DNA from: an uncultured virus (IMG/VR IMGVR_UViG_3300010334_004649) | Lineage: Duplodnaviria > Heunggongvirae > Uroviricota > Caudoviricetes | Reading direction: 5' to 3' (one strand) | DNA: 64,000 nucleotides | Virus record (IMG/VR): IMGVR_UViG_3300010334_004649 | Shown here: piece after piece, positions 15,368-63,440 of the stretch | Numbering within the stretch: the first letter of the stretch is position 1 | How the letters are laid out: the number at the start of each line of letters is the position of its first letter | Program-made: the position numbers and the translations under genes | Notes under the pieces: model-generated | Seen by the model: the letters and a program-made list of their open reading frames with translations, nothing else | What the model was told of the DNA's origin: nothing | Database searches by the model: none

Positions 15368-15449
15368 ACGGACAATCATAATCGACGATAGATAGAATCC
15401 ATCTCTCGGATCAATTGTATCCATGTCAGTCAATCCAAAGGAGGTCTAA

Positions 15450-15965
15450 ATGACCAATAGCGATAATTTTGGTAATTCAACAGCTCTACTCAATTCGTGG
15501 AAACAACTTCGTCTTTCAATGACACACGACCAAACTGACCAAGAACATCTTGATAAAGTAGTTGAATTTTGGAGCCATGCACCAATATCTCTACATGTAT
15601 TAGACTGGGATCAACCACATCTGTGGCCAAATGCCTGGAATCTCATGTATCAAAATAAATTTGATGAAAATGCAGTTGCCCTGGGCATGTTCTATTCACT
15701 TATATACTCTAGCGATCGCCGCTGGAATTCTCAAAGGATTGAGATATGTCTTATCAACAGCACACCTAAAAACTACCAGGGACTAATTTTGGAAGTCGAC
15801 GACCGATGGCTCCTGAATGTAGAATACAATAGACTGATCGACAGTACCAAAAACAGCAGGGATTATATAGTGCAGCAGACATATGACTACGAAAACAATC
15901 GCTACACTGCACGTTATAGTCAAGATCAAAGTCAGACAAAAACAAATGATAACCAAATATTTTGA
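15450..15965 (+). CDS. Hypothetical protein
   Basis: AAGGAGG RBS; 171 aa. Confidence 0.7.
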   Translation: MTNSDNFGNSTALLNSWKQLRLSMTHDQTDQEHLDKVVEFWSHAPISLHVLDWDQPHLWPNAWNLMYQNKFDENAVALGMFYSLIYSSDRRWNSQRIEICLINSTPKNYQGLILEVDDRWLLNVEYNRLIDSTKNSRDYIVQQTYDYENNRYTARYSQDQSQTKTNDNQIF

Positions 15966-16034
15966 AGTTTAAATAGAACGCTCTTACATTACACAGCGAC
16001 TTCAAAACATCAACAGACATAAAGAGGACTGCGC

Positions 16035-17003
16035 ATGACAACTCAAAAACAGGGTGATATTTTCGTCACCAAGAGAGACGGACACCAAGAACTATTGAAC
16101 ATCGAAAAATGGCAACAGCAAATCGCTAAGATTTGTAAAAATGTAGCAGATGTCAGCCAGTCTATGATCGAAATCAAAGCACAGTTACATTTTTATAACA
16201 ATATCACCACTACCGAAATCGATAGTATCACACTGCGGGCCATAGTTGATTTGATCGACATTGAGATCAACCCGGTGATTGGCCATACAAATTATCAATA
16301 TGTTGCTGGTAAACAACGCCTGTCAATGCTGCGCAAGGATGTTTATGGTTCCTATGAGGTACCGGATCTCTTGTCAATCGTCAAACGCAATGTAGAGGTA
16401 GGTCTCTATACTCCAGAACTGCTGGAATGGTACTCAGACGATGATTGGCACAAGATGAACGAGATGCTGGATCATGAAAAGGACGAGCAATACAGTTTTG
16501 CTGCTATTGAACAGATGATTGAAAAATATCTTGTTCGCAACAGGGCAACCAATAAGATCTATGAAACTCCGCAGATTCGCTACATTGTAGCCGCTGCTAC
16601 TGTTTTCCATAGAGAAGAACCAAATACGGCGAGAATGCGCTATATCAAAGAATACTACAATGCTGCATCAGATGGTTTGTTTACTCTTGCTACACCTGTG
16701 TTGGCTGGCCTTGGCACTCCAACTAAACAGTTTTCTAGTTGTGTGCTAATCCGCAGTGACGACAATTTGGATAGTATCTTTGCTTCTGGCGAGATGATGG
16801 CCAAGTATGCCAGTAAACGTGCTGGGATCGGATTGGAAATAGGTCGACTGCGCCCATTGGGCTCCTCAATTCGCGGTGGCGAAATCATGCATACTGGTAT
16901 GATACCTTTCTTGAAAAAATGGTTTGGTGATCTGCGCAGTTGCTGTGTTACCCCAGATACCTGGGTAGAGGTTTTAGATGAGGATAATTCTATAGATAAA
17001 TGA
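16035..17003 (+). CDS. nrdA: Class Ia RNR alpha, piece 1 (ATP cone to LRSC) plus 19-aa split-intein N half
   Basis: VTKRDG ATP cone, ETPQ, TPVLAG, FSSCVL (E. coli C225 equivalent); ends GDLRSC|CVTPDTWVEVLDEDNSIDK*. Confidence 0.95.
   Translation: MTTQKQGDIFVTKRDGHQELLNIEKWQQQIAKICKNVADVSQSMIEIKAQLHFYNNITTTEIDSITLRAIVDLIDIEINPVIGHTNYQYVAGKQRLSMLRKDVYGSYEVPDLLSIVKRNVEVGLYTPELLEWYSDDDWHKMNEMLDHEKDEQYSFAAIEQMIEKYLVRNRATNKIYETPQIRYIVAAATVFHREEPNTARMRYIKEYYNAASDGLFTLATPVLAGLGTPTKQFSSCVLIRSDDNLDSIFASGEMMAKYASKRAGIGLEIGRLRPLGSSIRGGEIMHTGMIPFLKKWFGDLRSCCVTPDTWVEVLDEDNSIDK
16944..17000 (+). mobile_element. Split intein N fragment (19 aa)
   Basis: Block A-like CVTPDTWVEV starts exactly where the NrdA motif RSC|SQGG breaks. 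Confidence 0.85.
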
Positions 17004-17008
17004 CAGTT

Positions 17009-17047
17009 TTTCGTATACCAGCATAAATAATATGGAGGTATACGAAA
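17009..17047 (+). promoter_or_regulatory. RBS-sequestering hairpin enclosing a late promoter
   Basis: TTTCGTATACC (17009-17019) pairs with GGTATACGAAA (17037-17047); TAAATA at 17024-17029; GGAGGT at 17034-17039. Confidence 0.75.
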
Positions 17048-18141
17048 TGCTAAATTATCTACAAGAATCATATAATGGATCACAAACTAATATGCTAATG
17101 AACTCTGCTTATTATTGCTATACAATTAAAGACACGGAAACAGGAAAGTTTTACTCTGGTTCTCGCGGAGTTGAAGGTAGTGGTATGCACGATTTGTTAA
17201 TAAAGTATTTTACCAGTTCAACAGTGATTGATTTTAAGGAAAAACTAAAAAAATTCCCAGATTTGTTTGAATATAGAGTTGAATACTTTAAAACTAGAAG
17301 CGATGCATTCGCAGCAGAAAAAATATTCCATCAAAAGCATCAAGTTGGTAAGAATCCTGATTTTTTAAATTCTCTTACAGCAGGGGGATCAAACTGTGGG
17401 GCGGGTTCTGTGTTATGCAAAGACAACTGTGGCAATACTTATCGAGTAACGGTAGAAGAATTCGCTACAGGAAAACATCAGCACGTTACGAAAGGTATGA
17501 TGAATATACGCACAGTAACAGGTATTAAAAAAATATATACCACAGACTTTGATCCTAATACTCAATTGACTGAATTTAACGATTACGTTCTGGCATTAGA
17601 CACAACTACTGGAAAAACTTTCAGAATCCCAAAGACTACTTTTAGGTCTAACCCTAATTTTGTCGGCATTACTAAAGGGAAAGTAGCGGCATATGATACT
17701 GTTAATAAATGTAAAAAATTGGTGTCACAGAATGAATTCAACAACTCAAATGGCAGATATGTTGGTAATACATTTGGGTTAGTTCCGGTTATAGACAGAG
17801 ACACCGGAGAAAAGAAACTAGTAGCAAAAGAAAAATATGATAAAAATGTATATAAACATCATAATACCGGAAATATTGTAGTATATTCCATTGCTGAAAG
17901 AAAAGTTGTCACAATAAGCAAGGAAGAATATGAGACAAATTCTACCAACTACGCCAATTTAAGTACTAAGGTTTTCTATAAAGTAGATGGTAAGTTTTTT
18001 AAATCAAAAGATCTAATGAATGAATACTACAAAACAACTAGAGGTAAAACGGTATTAAAAGTCAGTCAATTTGAGATGTCCGATAGGTTTACTGATATCA
18101 AAACTTTAACAAGAGAAGAACACGAAAATGGTAAAAACTAA
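17047..18141 (+). CDS. Free-standing GIY-YIG (Seg-like) homing endonuclease
   Basis: YCYTIKDTETGKFYSGSR...YFTSS...AFAAE...FLN; C-terminal repeated modules; AT-rich; lies between intein halves. Confidence 0.8.
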   Translation: MLNYLQESYNGSQTNMLMNSAYYCYTIKDTETGKFYSGSRGVEGSGMHDLLIKYFTSSTVIDFKEKLKKFPDLFEYRVEYFKTRSDAFAAEKIFHQKHQVGKNPDFLNSLTAGGSNCGAGSVLCKDNCGNTYRVTVEEFATGKHQHVTKGMMNIRTVTGIKKIYTTDFDPNTQLTEFNDYVLALDTTTGKTFRIPKTTFRSNPNFVGITKGKVAAYDTVNKCKKLVSQNEFNNSNGRYVGNTFGLVPVIDRDTGEKKLVAKEKYDKNVYKHHNTGNIVVYSIAERKVVTISKEEYETNSTNYANLSTKVFYKVDGKFFKSKDLMNEYYKTTRGKTVLKVSQFEMSDRFTDIKTLTREEHENGKN

Positions 18142-18532
18142 AAAGATTCAAATTAAAGATCTAACCGCAGGTATGAAAATTAAAACTAAAAATGAGAACG
18201 GCGAAATAGTGTTTAAAACAGTAACTAATAAATGGGATACTACTGTAAATCAACACGACCAAGTTCGATTAGAATTTGAAAATGGTGTGACATTGAATTG
18301 CTCAGTGAATCACCCTATTATGGTGCTACATGAGTCGGGATCGTTCTTGCAAAAGAAGCCAACGGATCTTACAAATGAAGATCGCGTTCTTACTGAAAAT
18401 GGATTTACTCGCTTGCTGGTTGCAGATTTTGAACAGCAAAACGACACCAGATACATTGATATTACAGTAGACGACACCCATACATTTTTTGCTTCGAATA
18501 GCAGCCATGGTCCTATGGTCTTGACTCACAAC
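18128..18532 (+). mobile_element. Split intein C fragment (blocks B, F, G)
   Basis: Ends His-Asn at 18532, Ser+1 at 18533. Confidence 0.9.
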
Positions 18533-19108
18533 AGCCAAGGAGGGATCCGGAACGCAAGTGCTACTGTATTTTATCCAATTTGGCATCTTCAGTTTGATGA
18601 TCTTATTGTTCTTAAGAATAACCAAGGCACAGAAGAAACTAGGGTACGACATATGGACTACGGAGTGGTACTTTCTGCCTTCTTCTGGAGGAGATTTAAA
18701 AACAAAGAAAATATAACATTCTTTGATCCAAATGAAGTACCTGACTTGTACGAAGCATTTTATAAAGATATCGCCGCTTTTGAAAAACTGTATGTAAAAT
18801 ATGAAAAGCGTAAAGACTTACGTACTAAAACAATGGCAGCTGAAGATGTATTCAAAGGCGGCATATTAAAAGAGCGCACAGATACTGGACGCATTTATCT
18901 TGTGTTTATCGACAACGTACAGAATCAAGGTCCATTTGATCCCAACTTCCACACCATTTATCAAAGTAATCTTTGTTTGGAGATTTTGTTGCCAACTGTT
19001 GCAATGGGTACTACAAAGAAGAAGTTTATTAAGGTTAAAAAAGAAGTAGCAAGTGACTTTTTACTAAACAAACCAGAGCAATTTGTTAAACTGAAGAAAC
19101 TGAAATAG
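18128..19108 (+). CDS. nrdA: Split-intein C half (135 aa) plus RNR alpha piece 2 plus Lys-rich tail
   Basis: CSVNHPI (block B), YIDITVDDTHTFF...LTHN|SQGGIRNASA; QSNLCLEI (N437/C439/E441 equivalents); then TTKKKFIKVKK...KLKKLK*. Confidence 0.93.
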   Translation: MVKTKKIQIKDLTAGMKIKTKNENGEIVFKTVTNKWDTTVNQHDQVRLEFENGVTLNCSVNHPIMVLHESGSFLQKKPTDLTNEDRVLTENGFTRLLVADFEQQNDTRYIDITVDDTHTFFASNSSHGPMVLTHNSQGGIRNASATVFYPIWHLQFDDLIVLKNNQGTEETRVRHMDYGVVLSAFFWRRFKNKENITFFDPNEVPDLYEAFYKDIAAFEKLYVKYEKRKDLRTKTMAAEDVFKGGILKERTDTGRIYLVFIDNVQNQGPFDPNFHTIYQSNLCLEILLPTVAMGTTKKKFIKVKKEVASDFLLNKPEQFVKLKKLK

Positions 19109-19153
19109 TTAGTGGATTGGTGGAAATATTTTAACACATTTTGGAGTTGAAGA

Positions 19154-20170
19154 ATGATTGAATTATATGAAGAAATAGAATATCTACCCGAAGAACTGGA
19201 TGATGAATATGAATATTATGAGGTGGATGAAGATGCCGCGAGGATTAGTTTGTGTACGCTTGGTAGTATCAACTGGGGAGCCTTCCGTAATCCTGAAGAC
19301 ATGCGTCGTGCTTGCCGTATTCTACAGCGTAGCCTATGCAATATCTTAGATTATCAAGACTTCCTATCAATCCAGAGTAAATTATCTAACGATGAAATCA
19401 GCCCACTAGGTATTGGTATAACCAATTTAGCCTACTGGCATGCCAAGCGTAACCTAAAGTATGGAGAAAAGGACGCACTCCAGGATGTCAAGACATGGAT
19501 GGAACATCAAGCGTTTTACCTGACAGAGGCTACTGTTGAATTAGCCCGAGAGCGCGGTGCATGCATCGATAGTGAAAAAACACGATATGGGCAAGGAATA
19601 TTTCCTTGGGAATTAAGAGCCAAGGCTGTTAATGACTTAGCAGACTTTACACCAGAACTTGATTGGGAAACACTCCGTACTAATATGAGACAGTATGGAG
19701 TCCGCAATGCAACAGTAATGGCCATTGCTCCAGTTGAAAGCAGTAGTGTTGTTATAAACAGCACTAATGGAATTGAATTACCTATGAGCTTGATCAGCAC
19801 AAAGGAAAGCAAAGCAGGATCACTCACACAAGTTGTACCAGAGTACACTAAACTTAAAAACAAGTATCAACTAATGTGGGATCAAAAGGACTGCGACGGA
19901 TATCTCAAAACCGCTGCGGTTTTGGCAGCTTATGTTGATCAAAGCATTAGTACCAATACTTTTTATAATCCTGCTCATTTCGCAGATCGTAAAGTGCCGG
20001 CGACATTGGTTGCTAAGAACTTGATGCAAGCGCATTTGTGGGGCCTCAAGACCATATACTACTCACTAGTGAATAAACAAGGATCAAAAGCCGACGCTGG
20101 AGAAGCACCTGCTATGCTAGAACCAATTGACTTTGATGATGAGTCTGGATGTGAGTCGTGTAAATTATAG
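19154..20170 (+). CDS. nrdA: RNR alpha piece 3 with acidic N-terminal extension
   Basis: Own GGAG RBS; MIELYEEIEYLPEELDDEYEYYEVDED then ISLCTLGSIN (C462 equivalent), PLGIG, APVESSS, KTIYY, C-terminal CESC. Confidence 0.93.
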   Translation: MIELYEEIEYLPEELDDEYEYYEVDEDAARISLCTLGSINWGAFRNPEDMRRACRILQRSLCNILDYQDFLSIQSKLSNDEISPLGIGITNLAYWHAKRNLKYGEKDALQDVKTWMEHQAFYLTEATVELARERGACIDSEKTRYGQGIFPWELRAKAVNDLADFTPELDWETLRTNMRQYGVRNATVMAIAPVESSSVVINSTNGIELPMSLISTKESKAGSLTQVVPEYTKLKNKYQLMWDQKDCDGYLKTAAVLAAYVDQSISTNTFYNPAHFADRKVPATLVAKNLMQAHLWGLKTIYYSLVNKQGSKADAGEAPAMLEPIDFDDESGCESCKL

Positions 20171-20260
20171 CCTGTGAGGAAATAGTTCCCTGCATGAATA
20201 TGGTAAAATATTTTAGAAATGGTTGGGTTCCGACACAAGACACAGAATGGAAGAATATAA

Positions 20261-21361
20261 ATGTCAAAAGCACAATATGATTTATCTACCAAAACTGACT
20301 ATCTCACACGCAAGATGTTCTTGGATCCTGCTGGTCCGGTAACTGTCCAGCGCTTTGAGGAATTTCGTTATCCGCGTGTTGCCAAATATGAACAGGAGCA
20401 GCGTGGATTTTTCTGGGTGCCAGAAGAGATCAATCTTACCAAGGATGCTAATGATTTCAAGAATGCCAGTGATGCGGTCAAACATATATTCACCAGCAAT
20501 CTATTGCGACAAACAGCACTGGATAGCCTACAGGGCCGTGCCCCGGTACAGGTATTCAGCCCAGTGGTAAGCCTACCGGAAATGGAATCTCTAGTGTCAA
20601 TCTGGAGTGCGTTTGAAACCAATATTCACAGCAAATCCTACAGTCACATCATACAAAACATCTATAATGTTCCCAAAGACGTATTCAACACCATCCACGA
20701 CGTCAGTGAGATTATCAGCATGGCCGCCGACATCGGTGAATACTACAATGCTCTGCACATTATCAACTGCCGCAAGGAACTTGGACAGGAGATCCACGAG
20801 CAAGAGCACATCGATGCCATTTGGCTAGCACTCAATGCCAGTTATGCACTGGAAGCGTTTCGCTTCATGGTCAGTTTTGCCACCAGCCTAGCCATGGTTG
20901 AGAACAAGATCTTTATTGGCAACGGCAACATCATCAGCCTTATCCTACAGGATGAGATGCTGCACAAGGACTGGACTGCATTCATCATCAATCAAGTTGT
21001 CAAAGAAGATGCGCGTTTCGCCCAGGCCAAAATTCGCTGCCAAACTGAAGTGTACGCTATGTATGCCAGCGTAGTAGCCGAGGAAAAAGCCTGGGCCGAC
21101 TATCTGTTCAGCAAAGGCCCTGTGATCGGACTCAATGCTAATATTTTGAAAGATTTTGTTGATTTCACCAGTGCAGCAGCATTGAAGGACATAGGCATAA
21201 AATACCAAGGCACAGCGCCACGCAGCACTCCAATACCTTGGTTCAACAAGCACAGTAATCCCAGCAAGAAGCAATCAGCACTGCAGGAAACTGAATCAAC
21301 CAACTATGTTATTGGTGTGCTCAGTACAGACATCAGTTACAACGAATTGCCCATCCTGTGA
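20261..21361 (+). CDS. nrdB: Class Ia RNR beta subunit
   Basis: FFWVPEE, LDSLQGR, ETNIHSKSY, LEAFRF, DEMLH. Confidence 0.95.
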   Translation: MSKAQYDLSTKTDYLTRKMFLDPAGPVTVQRFEEFRYPRVAKYEQEQRGFFWVPEEINLTKDANDFKNASDAVKHIFTSNLLRQTALDSLQGRAPVQVFSPVVSLPEMESLVSIWSAFETNIHSKSYSHIIQNIYNVPKDVFNTIHDVSEIISMAADIGEYYNALHIINCRKELGQEIHEQEHIDAIWLALNASYALEAFRFMVSFATSLAMVENKIFIGNGNIISLILQDEMLHKDWTAFIINQVVKEDARFAQAKIRCQTEVYAMYASVVAEEKAWADYLFSKGPVIGLNANILKDFVDFTSAAALKDIGIKYQGTAPRSTPIPWFNKHSNPSKKQSALQETESTNYVIGVLSTDISYNELPIL

Positions 21362-22050
21362 AAATTGCAGTTATCACGCCGTATTGGCATGAAACTTCCG
21401 ATGTGCTGACACGCTGCAGGCTCAGCGTGTCAGCACAGACACATGCAGATTATAGACACATCATGGTGGCAGATGGCAACCCCCATCCCATAGTGAGCAA
21501 ATGGCCCGATGTTGACCACATGGTATTACCTTGCTGCCATGCTGATGCCGGTGCTACTCCCAGAGCATTGGCTGCTATATCAGCATTCAGCCAAAGCTAT
21601 GACGCTGTGGCATTTTTAGATGCTGACAACACCTATGAACCAAATCACCTAGAATTGATGGTAAAAACTATTGGTTCTCAAGCAGTTGCAACAGCTACAC
21701 GAACAATATGTACCAGACTCGGGACTGCTCTTTATATCGACACAATAGAAAGCACTGGCGAAGATTTTTGCGATACCAACTGTCTTTTTCTGACAGCGCC
21801 AAGCATGCATTGTCTTGTAAACTGGATCACCGAACCATCACTGCGGTTATGGAGCGATAGGAAATTTTGGCACAGTATATTGCAGGCCAATCTGTCACGA
21901 GTACATTGTAAAATACCCAGTGTAAACTATCATTCAAGATGGGCTTGGCACTATCAACATGCTGGACTGATTCCACCTGCAGACAGTGTTTGGATTGCTC
22001 AACAGAATGGGAATTTGCATACATATACACATGCTGAGACAACAAGATAG
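21358..22050 (+). CDS. Glycosyltransferase family 2
   Basis: IAVITPY...SVSAQT...VADG...AFLDADN. Confidence 0.85.
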   Translation: MKIAVITPYWHETSDVLTRCRLSVSAQTHADYRHIMVADGNPHPIVSKWPDVDHMVLPCCHADAGATPRALAAISAFSQSYDAVAFLDADNTYEPNHLELMVKTIGSQAVATATRTICTRLGTALYIDTIESTGEDFCDTNCLFLTAPSMHCLVNWITEPSLRLWSDRKFWHSILQANLSRVHCKIPSVNYHSRWAWHYQHAGLIPPADSVWIAQQNGNLHTYTHAETTR

Positions 22051-22059
22051 GACGGTGAC

Positions 22060-22323
22060 ATGACTGCAGTAATCTACACCAAACATGACTGCCCGTATTG
22101 TGTACGAGCCAAAGATCTATTAATCAGTCAAGGAATCGACTATGTTGAATACATAGTCAGCCCGGGATTTGGCGAAACTCCCGCAAATCCAAACCAATTC
22201 TACGTAACCAAAGCTGATCTTTTGGCAAAACTACCAAATGCCAAAACAGTGCCGCAGATCTGGCTTGATGACCAACATATAGGCGGCTATAGCGAGTTGG
22301 CCCAGCATTTTAACCAAACCTAA
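22060..22323 (+). CDS. Glutaredoxin
   Basis: CPYC, TVPQI, IGGY. Confidence 0.92.
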   Translation: MTAVIYTKHDCPYCVRAKDLLISQGIDYVEYIVSPGFGETPANPNQFYVTKADLLAKLPNAKTVPQIWLDDQHIGGYSELAQHFNQT

Positions 22324-22363
22324 AAAATAAATACGCACATATTTCCCTACCTGGAGAACTGAT

Positions 22364-23245
22364 GTGCCTTTAAATCCCCCGTCATACAGCGGCCAAGATG
22401 TATGGTATAGTCCTAATGTTTATATAAACCAAGTACAGGCAGCCTTGTGGCAGCCGGCGGTGCCGATGCCATCGGCACTGCATTCTATACCTGTATTGCC
22501 AAATCCTTCCTACAGCCTGACTGCTGAACAGATATCATTGGCCACTTCTTCTACATTTACTCAGTGGACCATACGTGATGCAGATGGTAATATTACATTT
22601 GTTCCAGCAGATACTCCTGGTGCCAGTCCAGAAGGCACGGCCCCTTCCCCGGGTGCTGCTGCTGGACAAATATCGGGCCCAACTACTACTGCTATTGATC
22701 CTGTGGCTGTAGGCCAAGGAGGCTATTCTACATTTATTGCCAATATGACCAAAGCCTATCAGGAAGGATTAAGTGGAGCATGGCGTGGCGGTGCCAGCAA
22801 CTCAAATATACAAAAAATGCTAGCAGCCACCGGCATCAGTTCTGGCAGTGTGTTTCCGCCCGGGCATAGTTTTTGGTGTGCAGCATTCATGGGATGGATG
22901 CTGAAAATCAGTGGTTTAAAATATGTAGTTGGACCCGGTGATACCTGCTCTGCATCTGCTCCAAGTTATGTTAATTATGGACAGTCTATTGACATCAAGA
23001 ATCCAAAACTATGGCGGCAGGGGGATGTAGCAGTGGTAGGCAGCCATGGTAACACCAGTTCTGGGTCACATGTGACCTTTTTGTGGTCATATCCAGGTGG
23101 AGGTTGGTGGAAATGCCTTGGGGGCAATCAAGGCAACACACCGGGTGATTTAATTCTGGGCGGATTCCAACTGGACTCGTTTAGATATATAGGCCGTGCT
23201 TGGCCTGATCCAAACACTCCGCTGCCCACAAGTCCATCAAAATAA
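22364..23245 (+). CDS. Putative virion cysteine peptidoglycan hydrolase (CHAP/TIGR02594-like)
   Basis: WCAAFMGW...GDVAV...SHVTF...LGGNQ; TAAATA 22328. Confidence 0.7.
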   Translation: MPLNPPSYSGQDVWYSPNVYINQVQAALWQPAVPMPSALHSIPVLPNPSYSLTAEQISLATSSTFTQWTIRDADGNITFVPADTPGASPEGTAPSPGAAAGQISGPTTTAIDPVAVGQGGYSTFIANMTKAYQEGLSGAWRGGASNSNIQKMLAATGISSGSVFPPGHSFWCAAFMGWMLKISGLKYVVGPGDTCSASAPSYVNYGQSIDIKNPKLWRQGDVAVVGSHGNTSSGSHVTFLWSYPGGGWWKCLGGNQGNTPGDLILGGFQLDSFRYIGRAWPDPNTPLPTSPSK

Positions 23246-23298: not shown

Positions 23299-23634
23299 AT
23301 GTTATTAGATAAACCACTAGATGCCAACGATATCGTAAGTGTTAAACTTGGCAACGGCGACGAGATCATCGCAAAGGTTCTAGCTGTTGACGCCGAAAAG
23401 ATCACAGTGTCTAAGCCACTACTGATGATTCTAAGCCAAGATCCAAGATCAGGTGCACCAGGTGTACAAATGGCGCCATTTTGGATGATGGGTGCAGATC
23501 CCGCAGGAAAATTCACAATCTCAAAGACACATGTTGTTTGCTTAGTCAAAGCCAACATAGACGCTGCAAAGAGTTATTTGGCACAGACCACAGGATTGAC
23601 CATCCCCAGCGCCGGCAGCGGACTCATTACATGA
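23299..23634 (+). CDS. Hypothetical protein (beta-rich)
   Basis: AGGAG RBS before ATG 23299; DIVSVKLGNGDEIIAK. Confidence 0.7.
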   Translation: MLLDKPLDANDIVSVKLGNGDEIIAKVLAVDAEKITVSKPLLMILSQDPRSGAPGVQMAPFWMMGADPAGKFTISKTHVVCLVKANIDAAKSYLAQTTGLTIPSAGSGLIT

Positions 23635-24572
23635 ATTATAAACCTTTCCAATATAGCGGCACCACAAACTTCCTACGTTGCGAAAGGTACTATGATCAAC
23701 CCATAGCTGTGTTGGGATTACCAGTTGACAGTGGTACCTCATATCGCAGCGGTACTAGACATGGGCCTGCTGGCATACGTGCAGCCAGTGCCATGTTGAC
23801 TGACGGACATCTTGCTGGTTATGATGTTGATCTCTATCCATGGTTGGGCGATTATGGAGATCTACCATTGCCAACTGGCAACACGCAAGCGGTATTGGCT
23901 ATGATCCAAGCACGCATGACGGACTTGACCAGGACCAACACACATGTGGTGGCCCTGGGTGGAGACCACCTTATAACCCTGCCAATTCTACGCAGCCTTA
24001 AAGAAAAGCATGGCAAGATTGCTGTTGTGCATTTCGATGCACACTGTGATACATGGAATGATCACTTCGGTGAAACCCATGGGCATGGTACATGGCTACG
24101 CCATGCCATTGATGAGGATCTAGTGCAGGCTGATCACACCATCAGCATTGGCATCCGTAGCCCCGCTGATGAAGACTCTCGGCATTATCTGGTCTCAAAA
24201 GGTGGTATCACACTGTCGGCTTACGAAGCAACAGTGGTCCAACCACGAGACATGGCCGGACTGATTGCCCGCAGGGTTGGCAATATGCCTGCCTATCTCA
24301 GCCTTGATATCGACTGCCTTGATCCGTCGCAGGCTCCTGGTACAGGCACTCCAGAGATAGGTGGCCTGTCTAGTATTTGGCTTCGTGAAGTCATGGATAA
24401 TATGCAGGGCATTTCATGGATAGGCATGGATTGTGTAGAAGTATCACCAGCCTACGATCATGCTGAGATTACATCATTGGCTGCAGCGACATTTTGTCTG
24501 CAGTATATATCCAAAATTGCCATGGCCATGGACACACAACTTAGATTGAAAAGACTTTCAAAACCCGCATAA
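23631..24572 (+). CDS. speB: Agmatinase (ureohydrolase family)
   Basis: GTRHGP, GGDH, HFDAHCD, HGT, SLDIDCLDP, APGTGTP, VEVSP. Confidence 0.9.
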   Translation: MNYKPFQYSGTTNFLRCERYYDQPIAVLGLPVDSGTSYRSGTRHGPAGIRAASAMLTDGHLAGYDVDLYPWLGDYGDLPLPTGNTQAVLAMIQARMTDLTRTNTHVVALGGDHLITLPILRSLKEKHGKIAVVHFDAHCDTWNDHFGETHGHGTWLRHAIDEDLVQADHTISIGIRSPADEDSRHYLVSKGGITLSAYEATVVQPRDMAGLIARRVGNMPAYLSLDIDCLDPSQAPGTGTPEIGGLSSIWLREVMDNMQGISWIGMDCVEVSPAYDHAEITSLAAATFCLQYISKIAMAMDTQLRLKRLSKPA

Positions 24573-25671: not shown

Positions 25672-25884
25672 ATGTCTGAAGAATTTTACAAGGTGCGTAT
25701 GCATGACTGGGAAAAAGGCATGCTGAAATTTGTGGATACATTTTTTTCGTCATTTGATGAAGCATTGACCTATGCGTCAGAGTTGTATTGTGATAATTTT
25801 AAAATTTTTGATTCTAACAACAATCTCAGACACAGCAGCCATGGCAAGAAACAACAGCATCAAGATTGGCCTAAATATGCTTGA
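25672..25884 (+). CDS. Hypothetical protein
   Basis: GGAGG RBS; 70 aa. Confidence 0.6.
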   Translation: MSEEFYKVRMHDWEKGMLKFVDTFFSSFDEALTYASELYCDNFKIFDSNNNLRHSSHGKKQQHQDWPKYA

Positions 25885-25910
25885 CATAGGGACTTTATGA
25901 TTTTTATAAT
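25881..25910 (+). promoter_or_regulatory. Sigma70-type promoter for tmRNA
   Basis: TTGACA-N18-TATAAT. Confidence 0.75.
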
Positions 25911-25914
25911 AGAA

Positions 25915-26246
25915 CTGATGCTGTTTGACGGAAGGTGAATGAATTGTACAGTACCGGAGGGGCAGTACCTCCGCATCTCCACCAGTAAGCACATTGGTAC
26001 CCATAGGTGTTAGAAATATGGGGTAATTGCATTAACACTCGTCCGGTGTGCTTGCTCGTGGGGATGAAACAGGATCGCCTGGCAATATGAAGACCAACTT
26101 TAGGTATTGGGTAAGACACGACTCACAATCAGTTCAAAAAACAAAAATGACAATGACAACATTGCATTTGGAGACATGCTGCTAGCAGCATGAGCTCTTG
26201 GGCTTACAGGACGCCTAGAAACAGAAGAAGGCCCGCAAGGGCCTTC
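25915..26246 (+). ncRNA. ssrA: Circularly permuted (two-piece) tmRNA; outer ends approximate
   Basis: Acceptor piece ends CGGAGG-GGCAGTA-CCTCCG-CATCTCC-A-CCA (25984); coding piece starts GGGGATG (26060), giving G3.U70; tag DNDNIAFGDMLLAA* at 26149-26193; hairpin 26227-26246. Confidence 0.92.
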
Positions 26247-26843: not shown

Positions 26844-26908
26844 CATGAGGTTGACAAACATGCAGATTTGCATATGCTAGTCATGTCGATACACAGTTGG
26901 GAATCATA

Positions 26909-28723
26909 ATGGCTAAAAAATCAAGCGAAGAAATTGTTAAATTAACCGACTACGACCATCATCGCTTGCGGACGGAAATGTATCTAGGCAGCCGCAATAT
27001 TCACAGTCAAACAGTCATAAATTGGAATGGTAGTCAGCTGATTGCAGAAGAAGTTGCTTGGACGCCGGCCGCATATTCTGCCTTTCGAGAGATATTTGAC
27101 AATGCTCTGGATGAAGTTGTCGGTCATGGACATGGATCTCGCATTGATATCACCTACGATCCCAGTACTTTGACATTTGGTGTGTCAGATGATGGCCGTG
27201 GTATTCCAATTGACTGGGATGAAAATGAAAAAATGCACAAGGCTACCTTGGCACTGACGCAGGCTCGTGTTGGCAGGAATTTTGGCACACGTGAAGAAGT
27301 GCGTGGTACCAACGGTGTTGGTTCTTCTGTAGTTGTCAGTTGTTCGCGTTCATTCACCATCGACATCAAACGAGATGGCAAACGATTCCAACAGGAATTT
27401 AAAGAATGTACAGAACTCATGCCAGATCTCAACATTGGTGAGCCGCGTATCTTCAACAGTACTATGAAATCGGGAACTGAAATCAATTTCACTCTCAGTT
27501 CGGTGGTTTTTCCCAAGGCCAAGATACCGTTGTCGTTTGTCAAGGCCAGGGTATTTGAAGTAGCTGCCAATCATCCTAAAATACGCTTTAGTTTCAATGG
27601 TGACAGAGTCGTAGTGGCCAAAAGCCTCGACAAGACTATGTTTGCCAACAATAATCCCGTGATCATCAGCATACAGGAAGAAAAGTTTCACAGCAATTAC
27701 TACTTGATTCCGGGATTTGGCTCCGAAGGCGAATTTGTGCACAGTACAGTTAACGATATACCTGCATTCAATGGCGGCCAACACATTGATGTGTTTAAAA
27801 GGTTGTTTTTCAGTGGCATGCTAAAAGCCATGGAACGTGAAAGCAAGCGTCGAGGACTGACTCCAAACCGCAGTGATATATCAGAAGGTCTATTGATTTA
27901 CAACACCACTGTGATGCATGCTCCAAACTTTGACAGTCAAAGCAAAACACGCTTGATCAATGACGAGGTAGATCGTTGGATCAAAGCCAGTTTAGAAGAT
28001 GAAAACACATTCAAAAACATCCTACGTACTCATAAGGAGTGGTTGGATGAGATCTATGCTCGCTGTGCAGCACGTACTCAAAAACGCGATGATGCAGATA
28101 TTGCCAAGGCCAATCGCAAACTGCTGCGCAACAAGGTCCCAAAACTTCTAGATGCCAACGGCAAGGATAGAAGCAAATGTATACTGTTGATATGCGAGGG
28201 TGATTGTCTAGCAGAAGATACAGCTATCGCAATATTTGAAGATGGAAGATTTTGTAGCAAAAAAATTAAAGACATCCAAATAGGTGATTTAGTTTTAACG
28301 CATAAAGGCAGAATTAAACCGGTATGTAATAAACAGGCAAAAATAACAGACGGAATTGCTATTACAACATCATCTGGAAAAACATTAAAAATAAGTCTTG
28401 AGCATAAAATACCTGTTTATAACACACAACTTAACCAATATGAAATTGTAAAAGGCAAAGATTTAGACAAGTCTAAACATAAACTGTTTTCCTCTATAAT
28501 TGATATGGAGTCTACATTTTTTGAAATCGTCGCTGTAAATGATTATGATGATGGAAAATTTAATAAATCAATTTCTTTTACAAATGGTATAATTAATCAA
28601 ACCTGTATAACGTCCGAAAATCATTTATTCTCTGTTTTAAATAAATGCACTGCGACCATTGAAAAGGTAGCTGCTAAAAATCTAGACATTGATATCCATT
28701 TACTAATGGCACATAATTTGTAG
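26909..28723 (+). CDS. Type II topoisomerase large subunit (gp39/GyrB-like), N piece plus split-intein N half
   Basis: EIFDNALDE, DDGRGIP, GTNGVG, FDSQSK, KLLDAN, ICEGD|CLAEDT... Confidence 0.92.
   Translation: MAKKSSEEIVKLTDYDHHRLRTEMYLGSRNIHSQTVINWNGSQLIAEEVAWTPAAYSAFREIFDNALDEVVGHGHGSRIDITYDPSTLTFGVSDDGRGIPIDWDENEKMHKATLALTQARVGRNFGTREEVRGTNGVGSSVVVSCSRSFTIDIKRDGKRFQQEFKECTELMPDLNIGEPRIFNSTMKSGTEINFTLSSVVFPKAKIPLSFVKARVFEVAANHPKIRFSFNGDRVVVAKSLDKTMFANNNPVIISIQEEKFHSNYYLIPGFGSEGEFVHSTVNDIPAFNGGQHIDVFKRLFFSGMLKAMERESKRRGLTPNRSDISEGLLIYNTTVMHAPNFDSQSKTRLINDEVDRWIKASLEDENTFKNILRTHKEWLDEIYARCAARTQKRDDADIAKANRKLLRNKVPKLLDANGKDRSKCILLICEGDCLAEDTAIAIFEDGRFCSKKIKDIQIGDLVLTHKGRIKPVCNKQAKITDGIAITTSSGKTLKISLEHKIPVYNTQLNQYEIVKGKDLDKSKHKLFSSIIDMESTFFEIVAVNDYDDGKFNKSISFTNGIINQTCITSENHLFSVLNKCTATIEKVAAKNLDIDIHLLMAHNL
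28205..28720 (+). mobile_element. Split intein N fragment (172 aa) in topoisomerase
   Basis: CLAEDTAI block A, KIKDIQIGDLVLT, two block B-like motifs (SLEHKI, SENHLF); AT-rich. Confidence 0.88.
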
Positions 28724-28808: not shown

Positions 28809-29582
28809 ATGAATATAAATGAAAGTTTGTTTTTAATGGAAGATATAATAGATATCTCTCCTATAGGGAAAACAAACATGTATGATATACAAGTTATGGA
28901 TGACGAAACATTTGTATTATCAAACGGACTGCTAAGTCATAATAGCGCAAAAAGCATGGTGGCCGCCGTTCGCCATCCCGAAATCCATGGTGCTCTGCCA
29001 CTGCGTGGCAAAATCCTCAATGTCAGAGGAGAGTTGCCAAAGACCATTATTGAAAACCAAATCATCAGCGATATCATGACTTCACTGGGCGTTGGTCTAG
29101 GCCAACCTGCCAATCGGCGAGACATGCGGTATGGCAGTGTCTATCTAGCAGCAGATCAAGATCCCGACGGAGCCAATATTACTGCACTGTTGGTCAATTT
29201 TTTCTATCTACATTGGCCAGAATTGTTTGACCCAAAACTCCCTCCGGTATTTTATGTGTTCCAGACACCGTTCATCATACAGGAAAAGGGTAAGAAAAGA
29301 ACCTACTGGTATGCCGATGACTATCATCTCTACAATGCAGATGATTGGAAAGGGGCTCCAAAACCAACTCGTGCCAAGGGTTTGGGCAGTCTAGAAGAAA
29401 TTGATTGGATACACAGTCTTTCTAATCCACGATTAATCCCCCTGACAGACGACGGAGCACTGTCAGAAGCCCTTGATTTGATTTTCAATGCAAGTCGCGC
29501 AGATGATCGCAAAGCCTGGGTAGCACTGAGTGGTGAGACTGCTGACACAACAATGTCCGGAAATCAGGCAGGACAAAACTAG
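28809..29582 (+). CDS. Split-intein C half (45 aa) plus topoisomerase TOPRIM C piece (gp60-like)
   Basis: MYDIQVMDDETFVLSNGLLSHN|SAKS (Asn ends 28943); PLRGKILN, DQDPDG, KGLGS. Confidence 0.92.
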   Translation: MNINESLFLMEDIIDISPIGKTNMYDIQVMDDETFVLSNGLLSHNSAKSMVAAVRHPEIHGALPLRGKILNVRGELPKTIIENQIISDIMTSLGVGLGQPANRRDMRYGSVYLAADQDPDGANITALLVNFFYLHWPELFDPKLPPVFYVFQTPFIIQEKGKKRTYWYADDYHLYNADDWKGAPKPTRAKGLGSLEEIDWIHSLSNPRLIPLTDDGALSEALDLIFNASRADDRKAWVALSGETADTTMSGNQAGQN

Positions 29583-37991: not shown

Positions 37992-38405
37992 TTGAAACCC
38001 AGTGCACACCTACACCTTCTTATTACGGCTGAGATACAGAACCCGCCGGGCCCAGAAGATTGCGAAAAAATCAATGAGTTCATGCGAGGCATGGTTAAAC
38101 ATGTCCGTATGAACATCATGCTTGAACCAAACACAGCATATTGCAGTGATCTCGGTAATGAAGGTATAACCAGCGTAGTAATACTAACAACCAGTCATTG
38201 TTCCATGCACATATGGAACCTGCCAGCCCCAGCACCAAGCATCATGCAATTTGATCTATATAGTTGCGCTGCATTTAGTGTCGATGAGGTATTGGCATAC
38301 ATTGCTGCACATTTCAAACTTGTCAGTGTAAAATACAAATTTTTAGATAGAGAAAACGGTTTTATCGAGTTAGATCACGGCACCACCTTGTTTAACAAAC
38401 ACTGA
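37992..38405 (+). CDS. speD: S-adenosylmethionine decarboxylase proenzyme
   Basis: GITSVVILTT|SHCSMHIW self-cleavage motif; FDLYSC. Confidence 0.85.
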   Translation: MKPSAHLHLLITAEIQNPPGPEDCEKINEFMRGMVKHVRMNIMLEPNTAYCSDLGNEGITSVVILTTSHCSMHIWNLPAPAPSIMQFDLYSCAAFSVDEVLAYIAAHFKLVSVKYKFLDRENGFIELDHGTTLFNKH

Positions 38406-39641: not shown

Positions 39642-40873
39642 CAATTTATCATCATTGTAGTTTTTGCGAAAAAACACAACAGCAGATTAAAAAATTAATT
39701 GCAGGTCCAGACGTTTATATTTGCAATGAATGTGTTAACCTATGTTATGACCTTATCAAGGAAGAACCTGCTAAAATCATACCACAAGACGAACTAACTC
39801 CACAACAGGTCACAAGTTATCTTGATGAATATATAGTTGGACAGGAAAAAGCCAAAAAGACACTGTCAGTGGCCGTATACAACCATATCAAACGCATCAA
39901 TAATCCTGTGATCGACGGTGTTGAAATAGAAAAAAGCAATATGTTGTTTATTGGTGGTTCAGGCACTGGCAAAACATATTTGATACAGACTGTGGCCAAA
40001 ATTGTCAATGTACCATTGGCCATCGTTGACGCTACCAGCTTAACCGAAAGCGGCTACGTTGGTTTGGATGTAGAAGATGCCATTTCTAAACTCTATCAAG
40101 CAGCTGATCAAGACATTGAAAAAACCAAGTGCGGCATTGTCTACATAGATGAAATTGACAAAAAAGGGCGCAAGTCAGAAAACACCTCGGTAACACGAGA
40201 CGTCAGTGGCGAAGGCGTTCAACAGGCACTGCTGAAAATGATTGAAGGTTGCGATGTAAAAATAATGCCCAATGGCGGTAGGAAGAATCCCAACGGAGAC
40301 TTCATCACAATTAATACCAAAAATATACTATTCATCGTAGGTGGAGCCTTTGAAGGTCTTGACAAAATAATCGAAAAGCGACAAACTCAAAATACAACAG
40401 GTGTAGGTTTTGGCTCAAAAATCAAAGATTCTACCAACACCAAGGGCAATTACGATTTAATCAAAACTGTGCGTGGCGATGACATGGTAAAATTTGGGAT
40501 GATCCCAGAACTAATTGGTCGACTGCCAATTATTGTCACATTTGAAGATCTTGACGAATCTGCATTGATTAGGATATTGACTGAACCAAAAAATGCTATC
40601 ATAAAACAGTTTCAAAAAATGTTTGCTCTTGACAGCATCAATCTTATCTTTGCACCAGACAGTTTGCAGGCAATATCTTCAATGGCAATTGAGATGAAAA
40701 CCGGAGCCAGGGGACTGCGTAGCATAGTTGAAAACCTGTTGCTTGACCTGCATTTTTCCCTCCCGCAGATGTCTAAGAATGGAGTTAAAAAAATTATAAT
40801 ATCTAAGGAAACAGTAGAAAACATGAAAGAACCAGTGCTGGTTTATGATCAAAACAAGGATTCAATACTTTGA
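39632..40873 (+). CDS. clpX: ClpX ATPase
   Basis: CSFC...CNEC zinc finger, GGSGTGKT, IDEIDK, RDVSGEGVQQALLK, VGF loop, GARGLR. Confidence 0.95.
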   Translation: MAITIYHHCSFCEKTQQQIKKLIAGPDVYICNECVNLCYDLIKEEPAKIIPQDELTPQQVTSYLDEYIVGQEKAKKTLSVAVYNHIKRINNPVIDGVEIEKSNMLFIGGSGTGKTYLIQTVAKIVNVPLAIVDATSLTESGYVGLDVEDAISKLYQAADQDIEKTKCGIVYIDEIDKKGRKSENTSVTRDVSGEGVQQALLKMIEGCDVKIMPNGGRKNPNGDFITINTKNILFIVGGAFEGLDKIIEKRQTQNTTGVGFGSKIKDSTNTKGNYDLIKTVRGDDMVKFGMIPELIGRLPIIVTFEDLDESALIRILTEPKNAIIKQFQKMFALDSINLIFAPDSLQAISSMAIEMKTGARGLRSIVENLLLDLHFSLPQMSKNGVKKIIISKETVENMKEPVLVYDQNKDSIL

Positions 40874-41445
40874 GTGGGCATTGGCATAATGATCAACGTC
40901 GCAGTCAACGACGTGCAGAAGATCCAATCAAGGCCAGTATAGTGGCCAACGAGCGCATCAAACATCCTGAAGTAAGATTAGTAGACGAGCAGGGTCAACA
41001 GATAGGTATTGTCCCTATCAAACAAGCCATGTGGCAGGCACGCAATCTAGGTCTCGACCTAATTGAAATCACCGCAGATGCTGTGCCACCTGTGGTTAGG
41101 ATAGTAGATCTCAACAAATGGATCTACAATCTTCGCCAAGAAAAAAAGAAGAAAGAGCGAAAAGCTAGAGAGAATGCTGTGGTCATTAAGGAAATACAAC
41201 TGCGGCCAGTAACAGACAAGCATGACATTGAAACAAAACAGGGGCATGCTCGCGAATTCCTAGCTGACAACAACAAGGTCAAGGTGGTGATCAAATTCCG
41301 TGGCCGTGAGTTGAGTTTCAAAGAAAAGGGATTTGAGATCATGGATACCTTTATCAAAGGTCTCGATGCTTGCAAGTTGGAAAAGACGCCAGAAATGAAC
41401 GGCCGTACCATAATGGCCATACTAGCACCAAATGGCAAAAATTGA
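40870..41445 (+). CDS. infC: Translation initiation factor IF3
   Basis: NERI...VRLV, LDLIEI...PPVVRI, KEIQLRP, KVKVVIKFRGRE. Confidence 0.92.
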   Translation: MSGHWHNDQRRSQRRAEDPIKASIVANERIKHPEVRLVDEQGQQIGIVPIKQAMWQARNLGLDLIEITADAVPPVVRIVDLNKWIYNLRQEKKKKERKARENAVVIKEIQLRPVTDKHDIETKQGHAREFLADNNKVKVVIKFRGRELSFKEKGFEIMDTFIKGLDACKLEKTPEMNGRTIMAILAPNGKN

Positions 41446-42691: not shown

Positions 42692-43183
42692 ATGCGAAGC
42701 CTAACACTCACACAACAAATCGATGACCTTTTTCGCGACTTCAACCGGTTTGCAGTTGGATATGAACCAACCTTCCGCATGTTGGATCAAGCACGCACTA
42801 CTCAAACCAACGGTTATCCACCATACGATCTCGAAAGCACCGGTGAAAACAACTACCGTCTCAGCATGGCTGTAGCGGGTTTTACAGCAGACGATCTCGA
42901 AATCACTCTGCAAAATGGTCTACTAACCATTGACGGCAAAATCAAACAAGATGAAACTCGCACATACCTGCATAAGGGCATTGCTGGTCGCAGTTTCCGC
43001 CGCCAATTCTCGCTGCACCCCTATGTCGAAATCATAGGCAGCAGTCTTAGCGATGGAATTCTTACTGTGGAATTTGTTCATGAGATACCAGAAAGCATGA
43101 AACCACGTAAGATTACAATCAATGGTCCAACTGCTGAAATAAAAGTTTTGAATCCGTCGTCTGGGGTTACTGCTACGGCTTGA
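42692..43183 (+). CDS. Small heat-shock protein Hsp20 (IbpA-like)
   Basis: YPPYD, MAVAGF, YLHKGIAGRSFRRQF, DGILT, PRKITI. Confidence 0.93.
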   Translation: MRSLTLTQQIDDLFRDFNRFAVGYEPTFRMLDQARTTQTNGYPPYDLESTGENNYRLSMAVAGFTADDLEITLQNGLLTIDGKIKQDETRTYLHKGIAGRSFRRQFSLHPYVEIIGSSLSDGILTVEFVHEIPESMKPRKITINGPTAEIKVLNPSSGVTATA

Positions 43184-58660: not shown

Positions 58661-58744
58661 TGGAGTTAGGAGTGGGATTCGAACCCACGTGCCTTTCGGT
58701 ACAGTTTTGCAGACTGTTGCTTTCGACCACTCAGCCATCCTAAC
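58661..58744 (-). tRNA. tRNA-Cys(GCA), 84 nt, extended variable region
   Basis: GTTAGGA/TCCTAAC acceptor, U73, CCA; ACAGT-CTGCAAA-ACTGT; variable ACCGAAAGGCAC; TTCGAAT. Confidence 0.88.
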
Positions 58745-58811: not shown

Positions 58812-58895
58812 TGGTTCGGGTGGCAGGCTTCGAACCTACAGTGCTTGCGCGGGAGATTAACAGTCTCCTGGATTTACCAATTCTCCTACACCCGA
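58812..58895 (-). tRNA. tRNA-Asn(GTT), 84 nt, extended variable region
   Basis: TCGGGTG/CACCCGA, A73, CCA; GGAGA-CTGTTAA-TCTCC; variable CGCGCAAGCACT. Confidence 0.85.
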
Positions 58896-63099: not shown

Positions 63100-63176
63100 T
63101 GGTACCAGGGATCGGATTCGAACCGACACTGTAGAGATTTTGAGTCTCCTGCCTCCTGCCGTTGGGCTACCCTGGC
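63100..63176 (-). tRNA. tRNA-Leu(CAA), 77 nt, short variable loop
   Basis: GCCAGGG/CCCTGGT, A73, CCA; GGAGA-CTCAAAA-TCTCT; variable ACAGT. Confidence 0.88.
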
Positions 63177-63363: not shown

Positions 63364-63440
63364 TGGTACCCGCAGAGAGATTTGAACTCTCAACACAGGG
63401 CTTTTAAGGCCCTTGTCTCTACCATTTGGACTATGCGGGC
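63364..63440 (-). tRNA. tRNA-Leu(TAA), 77 nt, short variable loop
   Basis: GCCCGCA/TGCGGGT, A73, CCA; AGGGC-CTTAAAA-GCCCT; variable GTGTT. Confidence 0.88.

Follow-up and report, generated by a model that had tools for sequence, protein, structure and literature searches.

A phage class Ia ribonucleotide reductase large subunit encoded by three genes and probably rebuilt by protein trans-splicing and charged-tail docking

We analyzed a 64,000-nucleotide (nt) stretch of DNA from an uncultured virus of the Caudoviricetes (IMG/VR record IMGVR_UViG_3300010334_004649; "the window" below means this whole stretch), in which nrdA, the gene for the large (alpha) subunit of ribonucleotide reductase (RNR), is broken in two places. 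Three plus-strand open reading frames (ORFs), at 16035-17003 (piece 1, 322 amino acids (aa)), 18128-19108 (piece 2, 326 aa) and 19154-20170 (piece 3, 338 aa), together encode one class Ia NrdA. We consider it likely that these three polypeptides give a functional large subunit by means of two different repairs left by mobile elements, namely protein trans-splicing at the first break (junction 1) and non-covalent docking through oppositely charged tails at the second (junction 2).

A complete class Ia NrdA in three genes

Four consecutive plus-strand ORFs lie within 16035-20170: piece 1, a 369-aa ORF, piece 2 and piece 3. The Pfam domains of NrdA fall on the pieces in order: piece 1 has the ATP-cone, RNR_lgN and barrel positions 1-61, piece 2 barrel positions 70-219 and piece 3 barrel positions 220-522. 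The pieces also tile the Escherichia coli protein, such that piece 1 residues 8-303 align to E. coli NrdA 4-292, the piece 2 extein to 293-450, and piece 3 residues 23-335 to 451-756. Judging by this tiling, no NrdA sequence has been lost at either break. The exteins are 40-47% identical to the NrdA of Aeromonas phage Aeh1 and 42-58% identical to the unsplit NrdA of Ralstonia phage RSP15. A search of cultured-phage DNA with the window matched short nrdA stretches only.

All catalytic motifs were found in alignments with the E. coli, Aeh1 and RSP15 proteins. The 303-aa extein of piece 1 (16035-16943, plus strand), which comprises the ATP-cone, the all-alpha domain and the start of the barrel and ends in LRSC (E. 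coli C292), carries FSSCVLI with the C225 equivalent; the 155-aa middle extein on piece 2 (18533-18997, plus strand) starts at E. coli S293 and holds SNLCLEI (N437/C439/E441); and the C-terminal part on piece 3 (19244-20170, plus strand) holds ISLCTL (C462 equivalent, piece 3 C34), the YY motif corresponding to Y730/Y731 and the C-terminal cysteine pair, which is a C-x-x-C (C-E-S-C) with a spacing unlike that of E. coli. The first-pass annotation, made from the letters alone, had already proposed an NrdA in three genes with this placement of motifs, and both proposals stand. It had also counted one catalytic cysteine to each piece, which holds for the genes but not for the mature enzyme, where splicing would leave two chains, as in Aeh1. 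A complex prediction with the three extein chains scored 0.91, and still 0.86 after chain 1 was replaced, and was not used as evidence either way.

The source of the window is a large uncultured phage with structural, lysis and many nucleotide-metabolism genes. A near-identical 54-kilobase (kb) viral record (G001) was rated 13% complete, and contigs that carry related nrdA pieces reach about 350 kb; the split nrdA is that of an uncultured freshwater giant phage. In sequencing runs X2 and X3 (freshwater metagenome) and X4 (metagenome), 88-96% of the sampled words of the stretch were present. Contigs from other runs span junction 1 (X2, 16914-18561; X3, 16878-18607; 0 differences in either) as well as junction 2 (X2, 18850-19219, 0 differences; X4, 18257-19324, 2 differences), and separately assembled contigs share the layout, two of them (L008 and L104) being identical and G001 matching at 100% over 15400-22400. 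Because contigs of independent runs bridge both junctions and separate contigs agree, the layout is no assembly artefact; both breaks, moreover, hold structured, conserved inserts and no frameshifts, and we regard assembly or sequencing error at the breaks, which had been named as a way in which the proposal could fail, as scarcely credible.

A split intein with a very short N part at junction 1

Piece 1 continues past LRSC into a 19-aa peptide that begins with Cys and ends at a stop (16944-17003, plus strand), and piece 2 opens with 135 aa (18128-18532, plus strand) that run to THN directly before SQGG, the Ser of which is E. coli S293. The sequence marks break 1 as an intein that is split atypically, its N part being very short, and placed around a nuclease gene, in agreement with the split-intein halves noted in the first-pass annotation. 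The Cys at intein position 1 is found in the window and in 27 loci having the conserved N part, and THN before SQGG in the window and in 33 loci (all related loci in which a C part was found). The residues of blocks B, F and G of the C part, which in the window include the block B S-V-N-H, block F and the terminal H-N, are invariant across 33 related viral loci, and the stretches N-C-S-x-N-H-P-I and Y-x-D-I-T-x-x-x-x-H-T-F-F-A-S are invariant or nearly so among 14 sequences. Pfam PT-HINT matches the C part with 31.0 bits against a cutoff of 27.7, and the C part matches the Pab PolC intein (2LCJ) around block B (E value 3e-4). The junction would appear to carry every sequence hallmark of a splicing-competent split intein, and a HINT fold is suggested by these matches in place of a good structural model. 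Among the Foldseek matches listed for a model of the contiguous intein, the top 14 were all HINT domains (inteins, hedgehog and bacterial intein-like domains), with weak scores (E values 0.006-0.05; template-modelling scores 0.3-0.44), and the atypically split intein VidaL (6vgv) was a weak structural match at rank 23.

The expected product of splicing can be read directly in relatives. In three relatives that are 83-85% identical over piece 3 (P0115, P0109 and P0117) the gene is unbroken and reads ...WFGDLRSCSQGGIRNASAT..., that is, LRSC-SQGGIR, exactly the predicted splice product, and run X2 contains, at low depth, an intein-free joint at 16942/18532, exactly the predicted point. Since both the unsplit relatives and the X2 joint read LRSC-SQGGIR, precise excision would, on this comparative basis, restore NrdA.

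The gap between the intein halves measures 1069-1126 nt with a nuclease gene in 22 loci, as in the window; other gaps are 663 nt in one locus, 134-141 nt in two and 19 nt in two. A one-piece version of the junction-1 intein, of 147 aa and with the internal Met of the C part retained, was observed at 1026-1466 of locus L138; it either preceded the split form as its ancestor or arose by re-fusion. In this locus the N part's first 11 residues lead directly into the C part, from which it follows that the intein proper on piece 1 covers about 11 residues and that the remainder is an acidic extension. This extension and the Lys-rich start of the C part bear opposite charges. We place the split after the first strands, at what would be the "S1" position.

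The intein halves might instead dock without splicing, such that the active enzyme would be a non-covalent assembly of three chains. A variant of junction 2 in the same clade has an intein-like N segment that lacks the initial Cys (type B, below), which suggests that docking without splicing may occur in the clade, and the model of the contiguous intein is of low confidence (predicted local distance difference test (pLDDT) 57.7). Against this, the splicing residues Cys1, block B His, block F Asp/His, the terminal His-Asn and Ser+1 are invariant across loci, and the insertion separates two residues that are contiguous in unsplit relatives. We judge such a three-chain assembly to be unlikely, and retain trans-splicing as the preferred reading of junction 1.

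The nuclease gene between the intein halves

Between the halves lies an intact, free-standing homing endonuclease gene, probably GIY-YIG/SegE-like (17032-18141, plus strand; 369 aa from 17032, with the ATG at 17047 as the likelier start), whose 3' end overlaps piece 2 by 14 nt. Its family comprises 656 homologues at an E value of at most 0.001; among 81 aligned homologues, 17 match SegE_GIY-YIG, 8 match NUMOD3 and 6 match the I-TevI DNA-binding domain, and the GIY-YIG residues Y30, Y41, G43, E96 and N113 are invariant in the family. A language-model look-up placed the nuclease with GIY-YIG/SegE clusters (0.93), and BLASTP aligned it to a Pfam-positive GIY-YIG gene (E value 4e-4).

The GGAGG ribosome-binding site of this gene is covered by an RNA hairpin at 17006-17050 (plus strand) with CAUAAAUA in its loop (-18.5 kcal/mol; z -6.4), and none of 200 shuffled sequences folded as well. 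A hairpin before the nuclease start together with a 3' overlap is described for "fractured genes" and for Aeh1 mobE (PMC2677866). Counts in a promoter and terminator scan were not above those of shuffled sequences. Run X4 contains a form that lacks 1128 nt (16978-18107, the nuclease gene) at a depth of about 40, compared with 5-8 for the nuclease-bearing form, or about five times deeper. Because both are present in this run, nuclease-bearing and nuclease-free states coexist in nature.

Oppositely charged tails at junction 2

Directly after SNLCLEILLPT the native loop gives way to a 36-aa basic C-terminal tail followed by a stop (18998-19108, plus strand), with 11 Lys against 3 Asp/Glu (net +8). 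A 45-nt spacer with a GGAG ahead of the next start (19109-19153, plus strand) leads to the 30-aa acidic N-terminal tail of piece 3, which precedes ISLCTL and has 14 Asp/Glu against a single Arg (net -13; 19154-19243, plus strand). Alignments with unsplit NrdA start at piece 3 residue 21-31, the acidic tail lying outside them, and unsplit relatives have a short, different loop at this position. We found no intein features at junction 2, neither a nucleophile at either boundary nor a His-Asn, so that the earlier description of a break with charged extensions and no intein is confirmed.

By position, charge polarity and basic-tail sequence, junction 2 is assigned to the type of split described in phage Aeh1. 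A profile of 16 distinct basic tails of the clade gives the Aeh1 basic tail 17.2 bits, a score reached by none of 5000 shuffles; in Smith-Waterman comparisons with the Aeh1 tail, 60 of 20000 shuffles scored as well as the window's tail and none of 20000 as well as that of a relative (P0179), whose tail also starts V-P-x-G. These comparisons support probable homology of the basic tails. For the acidic tails, the likeness may extend to composition alone.

The tails are under purifying selection. The ratio of nonsynonymous to synonymous differences (pN/pS) is 0.108 for the acidic tail (18 distinct DNA sequences, 153 pairs), 0.012 for the basic tail of the window's subtype A1 (pS 0.47; five DNA variants encoding almost one protein sequence) and 0.243 for that of subtype A2, with 0.162 for 120 downstream core codons, all of these ratios being rough, as pS is near saturation. 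Such selection is consistent with tails that remain on the mature proteins and may be required for activity.

The same data bear on the possibility that the gene is decaying, with the pieces as remnants in a phage that relies on the host RNR. There is a precedent of sorts in a survey which suggests that Campylobacter phage nrdA genes interrupted by inteins or hypothetical proteins are degenerating (PMC3653736). The catalytic motifs of the window's gene are intact, however, pN/pS amounts to 0.16 for the core codons and to 0.01-0.24 for the tails, the layout is retained in many diverged contigs, and nrdB and glutaredoxin are intact. With intact motifs and purifying selection a pseudogene is unlikely, as the first-pass annotation had argued from the motifs, and we consider decay very improbable. 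The variant is real and probably functional.

A further alternative is an intron, read-through or a ribosomal bypass like that of T4 gene 60, any of which would bridge junction 2 before translation or in its course. Pieces 2 and 3 do share a reading frame and lie 48 nt apart including the stop, close to the 50-nt gap reported for T4 gene 60 (bioRxiv 10.1101/2022.08.31.505936). Yet two stops (TAG and TGA) lie in frame within the spacer, which also brings a GGAG and an ATG of its own, the spacer folds no better than chance (z 0.37), no Rfam family reaches its gathering score within 16035-20170, and relatives carry 0.9-1.8 kb with a nuclease gene in its place. In Aeh1, moreover, both tails are reported on mature, separate proteins (PMC3045599). 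An RNA-library contig (X20) is collinear with the DNA over 19048-19200, which weighs little, because carry-over of DNA is possible; this run covers only 3 of 30 bins. Bridging of this kind seems to us highly improbable, and docking of two separate chains remains the preferred reading of junction 2.

Tail-bearing cultured phages were sought by tblastn with the last 80 aa of piece 2, which gave 53 records with at least 80% query coverage. Two that were inspected (phiEa104 and QD01) were unsplit; their matches are no sign of tails, because the alignment simply extended into the extein that follows. This search yielded no cultured phage with the window's tails.

Relatives retain a nuclease cassette at junction 2

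An exact search with the acidic-tail motif returned 39 viral loci, 2 of them without nrdA, 6 one-sided and 31 with both sides of junction 2. In 84% (26/31) of the two-sided loci, a nuclease gene of 243-274 aa directly follows the basic tail, and relatives thereby have 0.9-1.8 kb at the position of the window's spacer. Three types can be told apart among these genes (14, 6 and 6 loci): two, the more frequent one and the next, score above the Pfam GIY-YIG cutoff, and the third matches nothing. Small ORFs often follow the genes. Two loci (L037 and L113) have small ORFs only at junction 2 and one (L115) a 71-aa ORF, while the bare 45-nt spacer occurs in L008 and L104, both identical to the window. 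The tails themselves fall into subtypes: A1, to which the window belongs, substitutes the loop from LLPT onwards, and A2 retains part of the native loop. Junction 2 is the scar of a nuclease cassette that is still present in relatives, and not a second invention.

We mapped the state of junction 2 on a tree of 3'-nrdA (104 rows, 654 columns), from which 90 junction-adjacent codons were excluded and six rows of unrecognised state dropped. The state changed at least 15 times, and well-supported branches alone require at least 4 changes for A1 and at least 6 for A2. After L104, the nearest neighbors of the window are unsplit genes; complete unsplit nrdA is likewise found in 38 of the 80 loci most similar to piece 3. 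The tree fits a cassette that moves between alleles, and recombination inside nrdA could look alike.

The combination of split intein and tails is not confined to the window contig. Piece-2-like proteins, consisting of an intein C part, the middle extein and a basic tail, group into 11 clusters at 90% identity, one of them the window's own, and intein and tails occur together in at least three lineages, namely the window group (with L008 and L104), L092, and L116/L119. Some relatives pair the junction-1 intein with a second intein, split or contiguous, by C439, or with tails of opposite polarity.

Several of these loci show further arrangements. At 600-6972 of L119 (on the same contig as L131; L116/L132 are alike) nrdA is divided among four genes: a second split intein, with a nuclease gene of its own, a 309-aa ORF, between its halves, comes only eight extein residues after the first, and the two split inteins are followed by a junction of basic tail, nuclease and acidic tail. 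A second pair of tails in the same loop and of opposite polarity (type B) was seen at 4501-7197 of L137 and in P0127, P0134 and P0048; it consists of a 45-aa acidic C-terminal tail, which resembles the start of an intein without Cys at position 1, and a 14-aa basic N-terminal tail, with a 235-aa GIY-YIG-like gene between the two. In L137, moreover, an HNH nuclease gene separates nrdA from nrdB. Another intein, split or contiguous, sits directly after the thiyl-radical Cys (SNLC followed by C) in L085, P0092, P0126, P0136 and P0125; relatives with this intein can have a three-piece NrdA by two split inteins, and P0125 carries three insertions in one gene.

A model for assembly and origin

Combining the results from the two junctions, we propose the following course of assembly. 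Piece 1 (NrdA 1-303 with the 19-aa N part) and piece 2 would associate via their intein halves, with the N part's acidic end set against the Lys-rich beginning of the C part, and trans-splicing through Cys1, Ser+1 and the terminal Asn would produce a 494-aa chain containing LRSC-SQGGIR, the equivalent of Aeh1 NrdA-a. This chain and piece 3 would stay separate and complete the catalytic barrel non-covalently, with the basic and acidic tails needed for an active (alpha-a/alpha-b)2 form, as in Aeh1, and NrdB and glutaredoxin from the same gene cluster would complete the system. This combination of trans-splicing and docking, already put forward in the first-pass annotation, gains support from the comparison with unsplit relatives and with Aeh1. 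As to its history, at junction 1 a GIY-YIG nuclease gene, kept at low translation by the hairpin over its ribosome-binding site, may have inserted itself into an intein, and junction 2 may derive from a cassette of tails plus nuclease that has since lost the nuclease.

A number of results weigh against this model. To begin with, trans-splicing, docking and enzyme activity are all steps that we infer. At junction 1, the C part falls short of the Pfam Intein_splicing cutoff (26.4 bits where 35.8 are required), AlphaFold modelled the contiguous intein poorly (pLDDT as given above), Foldseek with this low-confidence model returned nothing at an E value of at most 0.001, the nuclease ORF itself has no Pfam or PHROG match, and hhalign links the junction-1 nuclease family to the junction-2 GIY-YIG genes with a probability of only 8.6%. 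At junction 2, BLASTP of the window's basic tail alone gave no alignment to that of Aeh1; the acidic tail scores -1.3 bits in a profile comparison with Aeh1's (2043 of 5000 shuffles as good), is matched by 5637 of 20000 shuffles in Smith-Waterman comparison and reaches an E value of 0.14 in BLASTP; and the pN/pS ratios are rough for the reason stated. Finally, the tails of Aeh1 serve dimerization rather than heterodimer formation (PMC3045599).

A broader proposal is that the arrangement of basic tail, stop, nuclease, start and acidic tail is a mobile "split-and-dock" cassette, a functional analogue of an intein or intron, and here we consider the balance to be even. Such a cassette would move between phage nrdA alleles while the host enzyme is kept working by non-covalent complementation. 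One cassette lineage, marked by a homologous basic tail, could then be present in the T4-like Aeh1, where it holds an HNH nuclease, as well as in freshwater giant phages, where three other types of nuclease accompany it; it would persist as a selected scar after nuclease loss, as in the window, and would stack with inteins, such that three genes, or even four (L119), supply one essential enzyme through two modes of repair.

Other features of the window

The first-pass annotation had nrdB and glutaredoxin adjacent to nrdA. The gene for the RNR small subunit, nrdB, does follow directly (20261-21361, plus strand; intact by Pfam and PHROG), but a glycosyltransferase gene (21358-22050) intervenes before glutaredoxin (22060-22323, plus strand), the likely reductant of the C-terminal cysteine pair. 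Directly upstream of nrdA lies a 171-aa ORF of no known family (15450-15965, plus strand), which has a 173-aa counterpart at the same place in L119.

The large subunit of topoisomerase II is also encoded by two genes, at 26897-28720 and 28809-29579 (plus strand). The first ORF has a Cys-initiated segment of about 170 aa after EGD, and the second a 45-aa start ending in SHN before the SA of the Toprim motif; by eye, this break is a canonical split intein. The 88-nt spacer between the two contains a perfect inverted repeat and no nuclease gene, and Pfam finds only gyrase B, ATPase and Toprim domains on the split protein.

A permuted transfer-messenger RNA of the alphaproteobacterial type lies at 25877-26235 (plus strand; 79.2 bits against a gathering score of 50), a type that may hint at the host group, and four tRNAs lie on the minus strand (58664-58744, 58815-58895, 63103-63176 and 63367-63440). 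Genes for an arginase-family protein (23481-24569, plus strand; E value 5e-76) and an S-adenosylmethionine decarboxylase-like protein (37992-38402, plus strand) suggest polyamine metabolism. A translation-initiation-factor-like protein (40870-41442, plus strand) and Hsp20 (42692-43180, plus strand) are also encoded.

Comparison with known systems

Each of the mechanisms invoked here is already in print: split inteins around nucleases in nrdA, the tails of Aeh1, split inteins with short N parts, and, for T4 topoisomerase, loss or swapping of a nuclease with retention of its tails. In published full text, most subscription journals and the supplements of one preprint, which may list related nrdA cases, lying outside the search, we found no enzyme rebuilt by both splicing and docking tails, no atypically split NrdA intein and no nrdA in which such tails accompany GIY-YIG nucleases. 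That preprint remarks, as unpublished, that MobE has other insertions in nrdA and that their tails are conserved (bioRxiv 10.1101/2022.08.31.505936). The window shows how far selfish DNA can fragment an essential radical enzyme that selection still keeps, and suggests that a single polypeptide chain can be mended both covalently, through protein splicing, and non-covalently, through docking tails.

Junction 1 resembles the "fractured genes" of ocean metagenomes, in which split inteins surround free-standing homing endonuclease genes and which include NrdA-1 to -7 (Dassa et al. 2009, PMC2677866). In both cases the intein halves flank a nuclease gene, the start of this gene is preceded by a hairpin bearing a late-promoter-like motif, its 3' end runs into the downstream intein ORF (by 14 nt in the window), and the intein parts are oppositely charged. 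The NrdA inteins of Dassa et al., however, adjoin the thiyl-radical Cys and are split at the canonical site, whereas the window's intein lies between the equivalents of E. coli C292 and S293 and is split after about 11-19 residues. An intein at the Dassa site is found in relatives of the window as well (P0092, P0126 and L085).

Natural atypically split inteins are rare, with known N parts of 15-37 aa (PMC13014065, PMC11766414). At 19 aa, about 11 of them intein proper, the window's N part is comparably short to those of VidaL (16 aa), PolB16 (15 aa), AceL-TerL (25 aa) and GOS-TerL (37 aa); the likeness lies in the very short N part, the long C part (135 aa) and the presumed position of the split, the window's intein differing in its location in NrdA and in its nucleophile pair Cys1/Ser+1. 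Because its N part is so short and it has a naturally contiguous relative (L138), this natural Cys1/Ser+1 split intein is of the kind sought for peptide-based protein labelling.

A parallel for junction 2 exists in the T4 topoisomerase genes, where nuclease loss with retention of the split and its tails is described along with replacement of the HNH nuclease by GIY-YIG or Vsr-like ones (bioRxiv 10.1101/2022.08.31.505936). The MobA cassette of T4 gp39/gp60 adds C- and N-terminal tails to the split products, as at junction 2. The enzyme is a different one, and no bypass element was seen in the window.

The closest counterpart of junction 2 is Aeh1, for whose NrdA-a and NrdA-b with mobE Friedrich et al. 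2007 is cited in PMC3045599 and PMC2677866. Aeh1 and the window are split in the same loop between the C439 and C462 equivalents, with a basic tail on the upstream piece and an acidic tail on the downstream piece, and their basic tails have a common core of hydrophobic - K/R - V-K-K - x-x - V - x-x - F. In both, the mature alpha subunit consists of two chains, as expected for the window, although the window's upstream chain would itself first need protein splicing, unlike that of Aeh1. Aeh1 has the HNH gene mobE between the halves, whereas the window has a 45-nt spacer and its relatives GIY-YIG-type genes; the lack of mobE at junction 2 bears on the origin of the split and not on its working. 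According to experimental work on that phage, the Aeh1 tails are present on the mature proteins, and their deletion lowers activity about 2000-fold because the dimer of heterodimers forms less well (PMC3045599, Crona et al. 2011). These tails, hitherto the single experimental case, gain a large natural family that varies in sequence, occurs with and without the nuclease and includes a second tail type whose polarity is reversed, material that allows the role of the tails, and whether they travel with the nuclease, to be tested.

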